In this document: positions 1-14,112 of the stretch, piece by piece | How the letters are laid out: the number at the start of each line of letters is the position of its first letter | Numbering within the stretch: the stretch's first letter is position 1 | NCBI GenBank assembly: GCA_043813155.1 | Contig: JBDRLK010000004.1 | Coordinates: 1-14,112 of the forward strand | DNA from: Pseudomonadota bacterium | GTDB lineage: Bacteria > Myxococcota_A > Polyangia > DRWM01 | DNA length: 14,112 nucleotides | Direction: 5' to 3' | Position numbers and translations under genes: made by a program | Notes under the pieces: generated by a model | The model's database searches: none | The model's input: the letters and a program-made list of their open reading frames with translations, nothing else | Told to the model about the DNA's origin: nothing

Positions 1-230
1 TTCGTGCCCGCGCCCGAGCCCGACCGGCCGCTCGTCTTCACGCCCCTGCCGCCGCCCACGGACCAGGAGATCGAAGCACTCACTGAAAAAATCGCCGACC
101 GCCTGAAGAAAGTCGCCGTGGCCGCGGGCGTGGGCGGCGACGAGGGAATCGAGCCCGAGGACGAGCAGCTCCTGCTGGCCCGGTCCATGGCCGAGGCCTT
201 GCCGGCGCACGGATCCCACGAACCTTTCCG
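1..230 (+). CDS. 3' fragment of an unknown gene entering from upstream of the window. It reads ...TDQEIEALTEKIADRLKKVAVAAG..., then has an acidic tail. It appears truncated: there is no in-frame stop until 711, and the reading frame runs into a lower-GC, non-protein-like region.
   Basis: The open frame starts at the window edge. The first ~70 aa are protein-like. GC content and amino-acid plausibility collapse after ~230, where the opposite strand encodes a transposase fragment. Which strand is genuinely coding between 170 and 230 is ambiguous. Confidence 0.25.
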
Positions 231-450
231 AGAAGGATTCTGCCAGGGCGCCCGGAAGGCCGTTCTTACGATTCTCACGCCCATGTTTCTCAATGCAGCT
301 GGAACGACCTCGCCGTACTTCCCGTCGCGGTCGAGGATCACGTACCGCGGGATAGTGCTTTCAGGGAATGCTTCTCTCAATGGATGTAATTTTGTCGAGG
401 CAGTCCTAAAGCCCCCGCCACATCGCACGCAGCATGCGGGTTTCCCGCAC
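190..450 (-). pseudogene. Frameshifted C-terminal fragment of a DDE (rve/integrase-core) transposase; IS remnant.
   Basis: The minus-strand translation gives ...YVILDRDGKYGEVVPAALRNMGVRIVRTAFRAPWQN, then a 1-nt frameshift, then (A)FSERFVGSVRRQGLGH. This matches the conserved 'DxG..F ... SPWQNG.AERF.GS.RRECLDH' C-terminal core of rve-family transposases. The N-terminal catalytic region is absent and there is an upstream stop at 450-452. GC drops across this segment. Confidence 0.5.
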
Positions 451-790
451 TACGCGCTCCTGCACACTTCACCATCAAGGCTTATGAAACCTATCAGAAG
501 GAGAAGCTTTCAGCTGAGGCCACCTGACCCTGTAGTCATTATAGAGACCGAGAGAGTCATACAGCCACTGCCTATTCCACCTCTTCCAACCGAAGCCTCG
601 GCGCAAGCGAGCTCTAGCCAGCGAAAGCTTCTTGACTTTTTGTGTTTTTTTAAACATGGTTTATCTGAACCGTTGTGGGGAGCACGTCCATGTCGGCATT
701 CAGGCGCTTGAGCCGCACCTTGCATGACCTTGCGCTTTTTTAAGGGGTGACTCCCCCTGATGACGCAACACGCCATCCGGAGGTATGAAC

Positions 791-11342: not shown

Positions 11343-13649
11343 ATGAATGACAACACACCATATTTCCCGGCGGTCGTCATAGGCGGCGGCGTGTGCGGCC
11401 TGCGCGCGGCCTTCGACCTGAAGGACCTGGGCGTGCCCTGCCTCGTCATCGAGAAGAGCGACGCGGCGGGCGGAAAGCTCCTGAGGCTCGAGCGATGGTT
11501 CACCGAGGATTCCTGCGGGCTGTGCCGCATCCTTGACAGCGAGAAGCGCCCTCTTCTTCCCCGGGACGAAGATGAAATCCTGTGCCTCCGCCGCAACGTG
11601 GCGCGGCGCGACATCGACCTGTGGACGGGCTCGCGGGTTGTCGGCGTGAGCCGCACCGGCGAAGGGCTCACCCTTCAAATCGAACGTAACGGCAAAGCGG
11701 CGCAGCAGGTCTCATGCGACGCGGCCATCGTTGCCGCGGGCATGGACGATATCGACATGCATTACCTGTCCCACTTGAGGGCGGGCCTGGATCCCGACGT
11801 GGTTTCGGGGGAGCGGTTCGAGGAGATGATCGCGCGCGCCGCGCAAAAACCCCTGCGCAGACCGTCGGACGGCCGCCGGGTTGAAAAAATCGCTTTCATC
11901 GGGTGCGCCGGGAGCAGGGACGCCGCGCACCCGTGGTGCTCCTCCGCCTGCTGCGGCTACCTGGTGAAAGAAATCAGCCTGCTGGCCGGCGTGGACGGGG
12001 GCATCAAGCCCACCCTCTTCTGCATGGACGTCAGGCTCCATGCCAAGGGCATGCACCCGTACGGTGAAAAGGCGCTGAGCCGCACTCGCGTGGTCAGGGC
12101 CAGGGCCGGCAGCCTGGAGAGGAAGCGCAGCGGCATGCTGGCGGTCCGGGCTGTGAGCGATGAAGCGCTGGAGGAAATCGAGGTCGACCTGGCGGTCCTT
12201 TCAGGCGGCGTGAAACCGGGCAGCGCTGATCTCTTTTCCATGCTCGGCGTGAACACGGACCGGCACGGTTTTCCGGCAGCGCAGGCAGCCGTCAATCCCA
12301 CGGTTACATCGAATCCCTCTGTTTTCGTTGCCGGGGCGGCCAAGACGCCGTGCGATATAGCATCCAGCGTAATGGAAGCCAGGGCGGCAGCGGCCGCTGT
12401 TTTTGATCGGCTGGCGGAAATCAAACCGGACATCACCGGCTTTGCGGGCAAGGGCGGAAGGGCGCTTGTCATCGGCGGGGGCGCGGCAGGGCTCGCCGCG
12501 GCAAAGACCCTGGCCGCCGCGGGCCACGAGGTCACTGTCCTGGAAAAGCAGAATGCGGCCGGCGGCATGAGCACGGACATTCGCATCGACCCGGCCGGCA
12601 GGGACGCGGCAGGCCTCATTGAAGCGCTTGCGGCGGAGGTTGCCGCTGATGACAGGGTCCGTATCCTGAGCAACACGGAGGCAATCGCGATCAATGGAAG
12701 GTTGTGTAATTTCAGCGTGTTACATAACAATTCTTCCACTGCACTATCAGGTCATTTCGACACGGTTGTCGTGGCCGCGGGGGCCTCGTTGCACAGGGAC
12801 GAAAGGCTCGATAATGGAAAGATCATCACCCTGAAGCAGATGGAGTCAAAGCTGCATGCCGGCGACGGCGTGGGGGGCGATGTTGTCTTCATTCAGTGCG
12901 CCGGGTCGAGGGACGCCGACCACCCTTACTGCAACGCGGTCTGCTGCCCAAAGGCCCTGGCCCTGGGAATGGAAATACTGAAAAAGGGCCCAAGGGCCTG
13001 GATCCTCTACAGGGACATGATGACCGCGGGCAGGGACGAAGCCCTTTACACCAGGGCGAGAGAGGCGGGAGTCATCTTCGTACGCTACGAGCCGGCACGT
13101 GCGCCGGCCCTCAGCATCGGCGAGGGCGGCGCTGTCCGCGTCGAGGTGGAAGAGACAACACTGGGACGAAAGCTTGTTCTGAGCCCGGAGCTCGTCGTCC
13201 TGTCGTCGGGGATAGATCCTCCGGCCGGGGTTCTCGCGTCCCTGCAGGTCCCGGTCGGCGGCGACGGTTTCGCCGCCGAGGACGACCCGAGATTCAGGCC
13301 GTGCCAGTCGACGAGAAAAGGCATTTACGTGGCCGGCAACGCAAGATACCCGGCAAGCAGCAGCCAGGCCGCGCTCCAGGGTATCTGTGCCGGCATGGGC
13401 GCGTCGATCCTGGGGGGGCTCGCGAGGACGGTGAGCCATGAAGTCGAGCCGTCCCGTACCAGGGAAAAGCTGTGCGCCGCGTGCGCCGTCTGTGTCGACG
13501 CATGCCCGGCAGGGGCCAGGTTCCTGGACAGCGCGATCGAGCCCACGGCACGTGTCGAGGCCCGCCTTTGCCAGGCCTGCGGTCTCTGCGCAGCAGCCTG
13601 CCCTTCCGGCGCCGCCGTCGTCCCGGGAGCACCGCTTCGAGCGCCTTAG
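11343..13649 (+). CDS. Tandem-duplicated HdrA-like flavoprotein: two consecutive FAD/TrxR-like HdrA core domains plus a C-terminal 2x[4Fe-4S] ferredoxin domain. The HdrA N-terminal Cys domain and the inserted ferredoxin domain are absent.
   Basis: Domain 1: AVVIGGGVCGLRAAFDLKDLGVPCLVIEKSDAAGGK ... EDSCGLCRI ... IAFIGCAGSRDAAHPWCSSACCGY ... VFVAGAAKTPCDIASSVMEARAAA. Domain 2: ALVIGGGAAGLAAAKTLAAAGHEVTVLEKQNAAGGM ... VVFIQCAGSRDADHPYCNAVCCPKAL ... IYVAGNARYPASSSQAALQG. C-terminus: CAACAVCVDACPAG ... CQACGLCAAACPSG. Confidence 0.85.
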   Translation: MNDNTPYFPAVVIGGGVCGLRAAFDLKDLGVPCLVIEKSDAAGGKLLRLERWFTEDSCGLCRILDSEKRPLLPRDEDEILCLRRNVARRDIDLWTGSRVVGVSRTGEGLTLQIERNGKAAQQVSCDAAIVAAGMDDIDMHYLSHLRAGLDPDVVSGERFEEMIARAAQKPLRRPSDGRRVEKIAFIGCAGSRDAAHPWCSSACCGYLVKEISLLAGVDGGIKPTLFCMDVRLHAKGMHPYGEKALSRTRVVRARAGSLERKRSGMLAVRAVSDEALEEIEVDLAVLSGGVKPGSADLFSMLGVNTDRHGFPAAQAAVNPTVTSNPSVFVAGAAKTPCDIASSVMEARAAAAAVFDRLAEIKPDITGFAGKGGRALVIGGGAAGLAAAKTLAAAGHEVTVLEKQNAAGGMSTDIRIDPAGRDAAGLIEALAAEVAADDRVRILSNTEAIAINGRLCNFSVLHNNSSTALSGHFDTVVVAAGASLHRDERLDNGKIITLKQMESKLHAGDGVGGDVVFIQCAGSRDADHPYCNAVCCPKALALGMEILKKGPRAWILYRDMMTAGRDEALYTRAREAGVIFVRYEPARAPALSIGEGGAVRVEVEETTLGRKLVLSPELVVLSSGIDPPAGVLASLQVPVGGDGFAAEDDPRFRPCQSTRKGIYVAGNARYPASSSQAALQGICAGMGASILGGLARTVSHEVEPSRTREKLCAACAVCVDACPAGARFLDSAIEPTARVEARLCQACGLCAAACPSGAAVVPGAPLRAP

Positions 13650-13864
13650 GGCGCACTCAACAATAGATTCACATTTCTGGACGCCGATCCATCCCGGCTG
13701 GCTGCGTTGCTGCACCCCGCCACTCGTCGGCGTAGAACGACTACGCCTCCGTCGTGACGGGGACCCCGCGCCTTGCCAGCCGGGCGCCTCGGCGTCCAGA
13801 AAATATCATTGCATGTAATGAGAACATTAGCCCACATTCTGTGAATCTATTGTTGAGTGCGCCC
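13649..13864. mobile_element. MITE-like non-autonomous element (216 bp). It has perfect 25-bp terminal inverted repeats, GGGCGCACTCAACAATAGATTCACA, is flanked by a 3-bp TTA direct duplication, and carries nested internal palindromes.
   Basis: IR-L at 13649-13673 is the exact reverse complement of IR-R at 13840-13864. TTA occurs at 13646-13648 and 13865-13867. Internal inverted repeats: tttctggacgcc (13674-13685) / ggcgtccagaaa (13791-13802), and cccggctggc (13693-13702) / gccagccggg (13775-13784). There is no ORF of meaningful size inside. The element abuts the TAG stop of the hdrA-like gene at 13647-13649. Confidence 0.55.
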
Positions 13865-14112
13865 TTAGTACAACGCCCCGCAAGTTAGGGACCAGCCTTG
13901 TAGCGAGGCCGCGGATGTGGAGCCGGATCGCGAGCGCGCCCGCAGCGCCCGATGGAGGCGTAGCAGGGCTACATCGACGAGGGCGCGAGGACGAAAGCCG
14001 CAAAGTGCACCCCACGGAAGCCATTTCGTCTGGAACGATTTTCCGCTTCCGCAGGGACCCCGCCTCATTGCCCACAGGCGCGGCCGCAGTAGAGTGGTGG
14101 TCCCTGATTTGC

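Follow-up and report, generated by a model that had tools for sequence, protein, structure and literature searches.

The window analysed here is the whole of the 14,112-bp contig JBDRLK010000004.1, near the end of which an hdr-like operon closes with a gene for an HdrA-like oxidoreductase. A palindromic unit of 216 bp begins at the stop codon of this gene and ends 245 nt before the contig does, and the question raised by the locus is whether this unit came there as a transposable element or is a hairpin belonging to the operon end itself. An earlier sequence-only reading had taken it for a mobile element rather than a local palindrome, and this view is borne out by homologues with the same termini and short flanking repeats in two unrelated DNAs and by orthologous hdr loci which lack the element. 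The unit is probably a non-autonomous foldback transposable element, in other words a MITE (miniature inverted-repeat transposable element), inserted in a TTA overlapping the TAG stop codon with duplication of the TTA. It carries the signature of MITEs and DDE transposases, since three homologous units occur in unrelated settings with short direct repeats beside GGGC...GCCC inverted termini. The family was not found in the libraries searched and represents previously undescribed small bacterial transposons, yet of a fairly ordinary kind.

The anatomy of the unit (Table 1) agrees with what had been read from the sequence, namely perfect terminal inverted repeats (TIRs) of 25 nt flanked directly by TTA, with further inverted repeats nested between them in a long hairpin. 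A search of the window with the TIR returned only the two expected matches at 0 mismatches, while none of 200 dinucleotide shuffles matched at up to 3 mismatches. The left arm continues as a perfect arm of 39 nt, but its right counterpart is broken by an AT-rich segment of 37 nt, around which (13790-13849) the G+C content is approximately 0.40. When this segment is ignored, the TIRs are thus 39 nt long. The nested repeats comprise a perfect pair of 14 nt and a perfect inner stem of 10 nt (13693-13702 with 13775-13784). The whole unit was found to fold as a single hairpin, both as RNA (-129.1 kcal/mol, z = -14.5) and as DNA (-78.7 kcal/mol, z = -13.9), with 0 of 200 shuffles equalling it in each case.

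Relatives were sought among 72,556 plasmids (PLSDB) in a sensitive BLASTN search with the entire element, which gave one meaningful match, in an unannotated spacer of a plasmid of Desulfosarcina sp. BuS5 (L010 3002-3158). This copy of 157 nt begins with GGGCTCGCGCAAAAATAAC and ends with GTGCGAACCC, with TAA directly on either side. The local alignment of the window and BuS5 copies starts at the first base of the terminus and is found in one orientation only (z = 15, 0 of 300 shuffles). The distance from terminus to conserved interior block is nearly constant (left, 39 vs. 38 nt; right, 37 nt in both once the 37-nt insert is left out), and both copies have a GCGTAG...CTACGC apex, with the BuS5 TIRs being imperfect (30 nt, 80% complementary). 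Weak plasmid matches in Bradyrhizobium, Ralstonia, P. aeruginosa and Sinorhizobium proved on inspection to be coincidences of coding sequence or of unrelated palindromes.

The third copy was reached through an internal open reading frame (ORF) of 63 aa in the window element, which was used as bait. A word-indexed protein search with it gave no match, and an exhaustive HMMER search matched the predicted protein P0020 at 61-64% identity, ungapped over 54 codons (two further matches, to long repetitive proteins, were set aside). The DNA encoding P0020 contains a copy of exactly 216 nt on the JGI metagenome contig Ga0074469_10704082 (L020 878-1093), with termini GGGCTCACGG.../...CGCGAGCCC and TIRs of 28 nt that are 82% complementary. 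A BadF/BcrAD-type ATPase gene lies on one side of it and a sensor-like gene on the other. Its flanks read ...GAGCC TTG before GGCTC... and, at the other end, TTG GAC after ...GAGCCC, giving a repeat of TTG, or of TT/CTTG depending on how the run of G is split. P0020 itself is listed as a 99-aa "protein" in public metagenome gene sets (L020 926-1223), and is a spurious ORF lying across the element copy.

GGGC...GCCC termini, interior blocks and foldback are common to all three copies. The JGI copy also has an AT-rich insert (L020 ~906-940), which matches that of the window copy in position and in the side of the hairpin, the two being alike only in a short core, CAT(G/A)TAATG. The BuS5 copy has none, and this insert is an optional module of the family. 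The three copies have three different flanks, and their orientation with respect to the neighbouring genes varies (downstream and co-oriented; antisense; upstream), as expected of a mobile element and not of a cis-regulatory RNA.

A family profile was taken from the three-copy alignment (A3, columns 11-226), for which CGCGCCTTGNNNGNCNGGCGCCTC would serve as a family-level search pattern. The profile scores the three copies at 226, 227 and 120 bits on one strand vs. 19-31 bits on the other, and the family is therefore a unit with defined ends and polarity. All three copies fold as single rods. Of the cells of the alignment, 92.7% are paired vs. ~40% after shifting the partners by 1-3 columns, and compensatory double changes occur in 18 of the 67 pairs (three of them within the inner 10-bp stem) vs. 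0-3 for slid partners and 6.7 +/- 2.1 for shuffled ones (0 of 500). The foldback is thus maintained across the family. By our own count from the pair table, G.U cells (9) are not enriched over mismatches of the A.C type (~6-7), so both strands are equally constrained, which is easier to reconcile with the upkeep of an inverted repeat in DNA than with selection acting on a single RNA strand.

Three orthologous hdr loci were available for comparison. Exact look-ups of the HdrA-like and MvhD proteins of the window turned up no alternative assembly. The sister locus (L007) has the same gene order as the window at 85% amino-acid and 87% nucleotide identity, and its nucleotide homology with the window stops at window position 13641, 5 nt before the TTA. 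In this locus and in the two others (L008 and L009) a conserved response-regulator gene lies 37-94 nt beyond the stop codon of the HdrA-like gene, and the element is absent, whereas the spacer in the window consists of the 216-nt element and at least 245 nt of further palindromic DNA. No response-regulator gene was seen in the 463 nt between the window's stop codon and the contig end; it has been either displaced beyond the contig end or lost. The comparison of these loci shows that the element is an addition in the window lineage.

The TAG stop codon (13647-13649) is made up of the target's TA, from the left TTA, and the first G of the terminal repeat. When the element and one TTA are excised in silico, the junction reads CCT TAG TAC (predicted empty-site sequence CCTTAGTAC), the stop codon being the same in both states and hence independent of the insertion; the earlier suggestion that the insertion leaves it unharmed was therefore correct. 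An equally possible reading of the direct repeat is CTTAG (5 nt), which leaves TIRs of 24 nt, since the flank agrees with the outermost G/C of the inverted repeat. The host genome has a G+C content of 63-65%, and in such a genome targets of the TTA/TAA/TAG type would cluster at stop codons, and the position of the insertion would be accounted for in this way.

The element does not encode a protein. Between the window and JGI copies, differences in the internal ORF fall 14/5/13 by codon position, with 21 of the 25 changed codons being non-synonymous and 4 synonymous. The amino-acid identity is equal in all six frames, neither start nor stop is conserved, and the 63-aa product has no Pfam match. 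On the basis of (i) the codon-position pattern, (ii) the non-synonymous excess and (iii) the six-frame equality, a small protein encoded by the element was rejected. Against Rfam, the best match of the window copy was Xoo8, at 18.9 bits vs. a gathering threshold of 90; this likeness does not recur in the other copies and was dismissed as noise. The JGI copy gave only anti-hemB at chance level (11.2 bits, E = 9.6, gathering threshold 49.5), and the BuS5 copy gave nothing.

It had also been proposed that the 37-mer could act as an outward promoter and that the element might supply the terminator of the operon. No sigma-70 promoter consensus was found in the 37-mer and its surroundings or in the JGI copy; the asymmetric AT-rich segment is real and, with its counterpart in the JGI copy, a feature of the family, but a role as a promoter is not supported. 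Neither the region 13300-14112 nor the JGI copy has a site resembling an intrinsic terminator, the stem being followed by GTACAACGCC and no U-tract, which speaks against the element as a canonical, intrinsic terminator.

Table 1. Features of the window and of the orthologous hdr loci (window positions unless a locus is named).
Feature	Position	Strand	Basis or remarks
Foldback element, 216 bp	13649-13864		Between TTA and TTA; G+C content 59%
Left direct repeat TTA (target-site duplication)	13646-13648		Direct reading; equivalents TAA/TAA in BuS5, TTG in L020
Right direct repeat TTA	13865-13867		Direct reading
Left TIR, 25 nt, GGGCGCACTCAACAATAGATTCACA	13649-13673	+	Aligns from its first base onward with the BuS5 and JGI termini
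Right TIR	13840-13864	-	Pattern match; exact reverse complement of 13649-13673
Continuation of left arm, 14 nt, TTTCTGGACGCCGA	13674-13687	+	100% complementary to 13789-13802; helix 2, 5 compensatory pairs
Right partner of the 14-nt inner arm, TCGGCGTCCAGAAA	13789-13802	+	Inverted-repeat search
Left conserved block, CGATCCATCCCGGCTGGCTGCGTT	13685-13708	+	Unpaired TCCAT loop and left half of the 10-bp inner stem (13693-13702); 22/24 identical to BuS5; invariant columns in the three-copy alignment
Central variable region	13709-13766	+	Apex hairpin GGCGTAG-AACGA-CTACGCC (13729-13747); 53/58 identities with the JGI copy; shorter in BuS5
Right conserved block, CGCGCCTTGCCAGCCGGGCGCCTC	13767-13790	+	Right half of the inner stem (13775-13784) and unpaired CGCC loop; 23/24 identical to BuS5
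Asymmetric AT-rich insert in right arm, 37 nt	13803-13839	+	Counterpart at the matching position in L020 (16/37 identical); lacking in BuS5
Gene for the 768-aa HdrA-like FAD/4Fe-4S oxidoreductase, last in the hdr-like operon	11343-13649	+	ORF list; Pfam Pyr_redox_2/Fer4; product identical to NCBI MAG protein P0001
Second, weaker inverted-repeat structure	13880-14112		Ends TTA/GGGACCA... and ...TGGTCCC/TGA
Sigma-54-type response-regulator gene (MFS(I/V)LIIEDE...)	L007 11727-13103; L008 3476-3553; L009 3672-4403		Directly 3' of the HdrA-like gene

A working definition of prokaryotic MITEs is available (PMC10969869). The element is non-coding, has a length of 216 nt (below 500 bp), carries TIRs and lies between short direct repeats (TTA/TTA, with TAA/TAA in BuS5 and TTG in the JGI copy, where the left end is ambiguous by one G). 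It also shares with such elements a predicted, very stable stem-loop transcript and an intergenic or gene-end site (PMC10969869). However, typical MITEs have TIRs of 4-30 bp and are AT-rich, whereas the window element has a G+C content of 59% and an inverted repeat of ~65 nt per arm, being a foldback.

The described analogue that comes closest in size, folding energy and tolerance within an operon is Chunjie, a MITE from Geobacter uraniireducens Rf4, which has TIRs of 21 bp, direct repeats of 9 bp and a high A+T content (PMC3184786, PMC10969869). The comparison, made by description only, finds Chunjie similar in its length (178-235 bp), the folding energy of its RNA (~-98 to -130 kcal/mol), its deltaproteobacterial-type host and its toleration in an operon. 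With its TIRs of 25-39 bp, 3-nt repeat and G+C content of 59%, the window element does not have the defining features described for Chunjie, and the difference in TIRs and direct repeats therefore implies that the transposase belongs to another family.

The most likely source of that transposase, at moderate confidence, would be the IS5 family of insertion sequences (ISs), because the 3-nt TTA/TAA duplication is a signature of its IS427 and IS1031 groups. Members of these groups (e.g., IS1237/ISLxx6) duplicate TTA/TAA (PMC2516522). They and their MITE derivatives resemble the window element in this duplication and in termini beginning with a G-rich GA/GG, and differ from it in that the window element has no transposase gene and one of the three copies is flanked by TTG instead of TNA. 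The confidence is no higher because of this third copy and because no parent IS was found. The ends of IS1405 in L015, which were read for comparison, showed no clear termini. The eukaryotic pair of PIF/Harbinger and Tourist elements provides an analogy for IS5-family ISs and their MITE derivatives.

A possible course of events can be put forward. A DDE transposase encoded elsewhere and acting in trans would bind the GGGC-terminated TIRs of 25-39 bp and excise or copy the element, cutting a T-rich target with a stagger of 3 nt; in this way the element would be mobile in the window genome. Transcribed with the operon, it would form a rod of ~65 base pairs per arm at the 3' end of the mRNA, with a perfect 39-bp base that starts at the stop codon. 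Such a rod would block 3' exonucleases and/or serve as a substrate for RNase III; it would not be a canonical intrinsic terminator, because no U-tract follows. Co-transcribed hairpin MITEs with effects of this kind include Correia elements in Neisseria, in which RNase III cleaves the long duplex stem formed by the TIRs, and ERIC elements, which alter mRNA decay and are located at the 3' ends of genes in Yersinia (PMC10969869). By this analogy, processing or decay of the Correia/ERIC type would be the most likely kind of effect of the window element. Hosts, sequences and target duplication all differ from those of the window element; Correia elements duplicate TA.

Several observations weigh against a DDE-transposed MITE. 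The flank of the JGI copy is TTG (or TT/CTTG) and not TNA, so that the IS5-type target rule holds in two of the three copies, and the PLSDB plasmids, the 50,697 phage records of INPHARED and IMG/VR yielded no autonomous IS whose ends are similar. A second copy was not seen within any one replicon (there is one in the 14-kb contig and one in the 108.6-kb BuS5 plasmid), nor was any copy seen in the 21.6 kb of the sister locus. A scan of 185,579 species genomes with an 18-mer TIR core gave 5 matches, all single, and a scan of JGI metagenomes with a 20-mer TIR core gave 1, both probes being window-specific and blind to termini of the BuS5 and JGI types, and the collections scanned not including the source genome. 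All of these are judged to be chance matches because they lie in low-GC, mostly coding DNA and show no identity beyond the probe. Scans of viral collections with four family patterns likewise returned nothing or chance matches only. The orthologous loci do not offer a clean empty site, as the downstream flank has no homologue. The interior blocks of the window and BuS5 copies are 92-96% identical (22/24 and 23/24) vs. 68-72% for the termini (17-18/25), which is unusual if the transposase-binding ends are all that matters. Several invariant bases are, in addition, unpaired and strand-asymmetric. Finally, a stretch of ~10 nt upstream of the flanking repeat bears, in each copy, a weak likeness to the last bases of the element's own right end: GAGCGCC vs. 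GTGCGCCC in the window (13636-13645), GAGCC vs. GAGCCC in the JGI copy (L020 minus strand, upstream of 1093) and GAAC vs. GAAC in the BuS5 copy (L010 2989-2998). This likeness is marginal and was noticed post hoc (per-copy p = 0.08, 0.26 and 0.017; Fisher 0.014).

Some of these features would suit a hairpin whose mobility depends not on a DDE transposase but on recombination of the folded single strand or on a site-specific reaction (attC-like, HUH/Y1- or recombinase-driven), its loops marking the strand and the flanking repeat being the crossover core. Invariant, unpaired and strand-asymmetric blocks (T(C/G)CAT opposite CGCC; GCGTT opposite CGCGCCTT) do stand between the covarying stems, the family has a strong strand polarity, the flank resembles the right end as just described, and the apparent length of the flanking repeat varies among copies. 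We consider this unlikely, as long perfect TIRs with a short duplication are the classical DDE signature and no integrase, RAYT or TnpA gene adjoins any of the three loci. An integron attC site in particular was rejected: the ends TTAGGGCGC ... GCGCCCTTA lack, by inspection, the core sites RYYYAAC ... GTTRRRY, and neither the ORF list nor Pfam revealed an integrase or a cassette array in the window. Taken further, the family could be a mobile structured module of a new element class, in which a recombinase or nuclease recognises the strand-asymmetric loops between covarying stems on a folded single strand of DNA or RNA, by an attC-like or bridge-like logic; this would explain why the interior blocks are conserved better than the termini, but we hold it to be quite improbable. 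It is improbable, too, that the unit is a structured non-coding RNA gene or a cis-regulatory hairpin of the 3' untranslated region, conserved for its RNA function and spread horizontally, with coincidental flanking repeats. The very stable fold of all three members, the compensatory changes and the conserved loop sequences would agree with such an RNA, and a hairpin at this site might be useful, since in the sister locus a strong hairpin, unrelated to the element, covers the corresponding stop codon. Short direct repeats nevertheless flank all three copies, the orientation differs at each locus, G.U pairs are not enriched, no Rfam family comes near its threshold, and promoter and terminator consensus sequences are absent.

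A single-copy local palindrome, REP-like or a terminator, which arose in place by inverted duplication, is a very doubtful alternative to a transposed MITE. One copy is visible per stretch of DNA, and operon ends are places where hairpins are common; homologues with the same ends on an unrelated plasmid and a metagenome contig largely refute it, and the element is absent from the three orthologous loci, has no U-tract after its stem and, at 216 nt with direct repeats, is far from the 20-40 nt of REP (repetitive extragenic palindromic) sequences. REP and REPIN elements (GTAG-headed palindromes of 20-40 nt, in pairs of ~60-110 nt, that lack a target duplication) were rejected on the same grounds of length and direct repeats; in the window element GTAG occurs only at the apex hairpin (13732-13735). 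That the unit is a hairpin chimera produced by the assembly is hardly credible. It does lie 245 nt from the end of a contig of a metagenome-assembled genome, and a second inverted repeat ends at the last base. However, the element is internal, with unique sequence on both sides, and independent assemblies from other projects hold homologous units of the same length and architecture.

The DNA between the element and the contig end contains this second, weaker inverted-repeat structure. Its arms (13880-13920 and 14072-14112) are 41 nt long and 73% complementary, the right one ending on the contig's last base, and the RNA fold has z = -3.5. Its centre, CTCGTCGATGTAGCCCTGCTACGCCTCCATCG on the minus strand, resembles the apex region of the element over 37 nt (z = 4.8). 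The family profile does not detect 13880-14112, and with only this central similarity left it was rejected as a family member. The structure may be a related foldback that has decayed, and may be why the assembly stops there.

Other palindromes were noted near the loci compared. In the sister locus a REP-like palindrome with a 19-bp stem and GTAG heads (GGTAGCCGCAGGCTTTAGC ... GCTAAAGCTTGCGGCTACC, L007 11615-11680), unrelated to the element and single-copy in the 21.6 kb, spans the stop codon of the HdrA-like ortholog and supplies the last five codons of that gene; as it stands at the same operon end, this operon end accumulates hairpins. A near-perfect 75-nt palindrome (L010 2413-2487), also unrelated in sequence, lies ~500 nt from the element copy on the BuS5 plasmid and matches generic miRNA-hairpin models of Rfam on both strands at 47 bits, below threshold. 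At the other end of the window (1-711), the contig opens inside an ORF of which only the first ~80 residues are protein-like. A supposed likeness to the C-termini of IS91-type transposases was discarded, having no support from Pfam, NCBIfam or plasmid tblastn.

The practical consequences of these findings are modest. The element is probably the cause of the contig ending where it does, and gene callers would be misled by such units, P0020 being public already and an equivalent 63-aa ORF being present in the window copy. On the other hand, spurious ORFs like P0020 can be used as protein-level handles to find MITE copies. The locus also provides a case of insertion on a stop codon without a change to the protein. 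What is gained is a defined, searchable family, with a profile, GGGC(G/T)C termini, a T-rich 3-nt duplication and two invariant interior blocks, which extends the sparse catalogue of MITEs from uncultured, anaerobic bacteria, Desulfobacterota-like and related ones. By analogy with Correia and ERIC elements, a perfect double-stranded RNA stem of 39 bp at the 3' end of an energy-metabolism operon would offer a testable case of MITE-driven mRNA processing.

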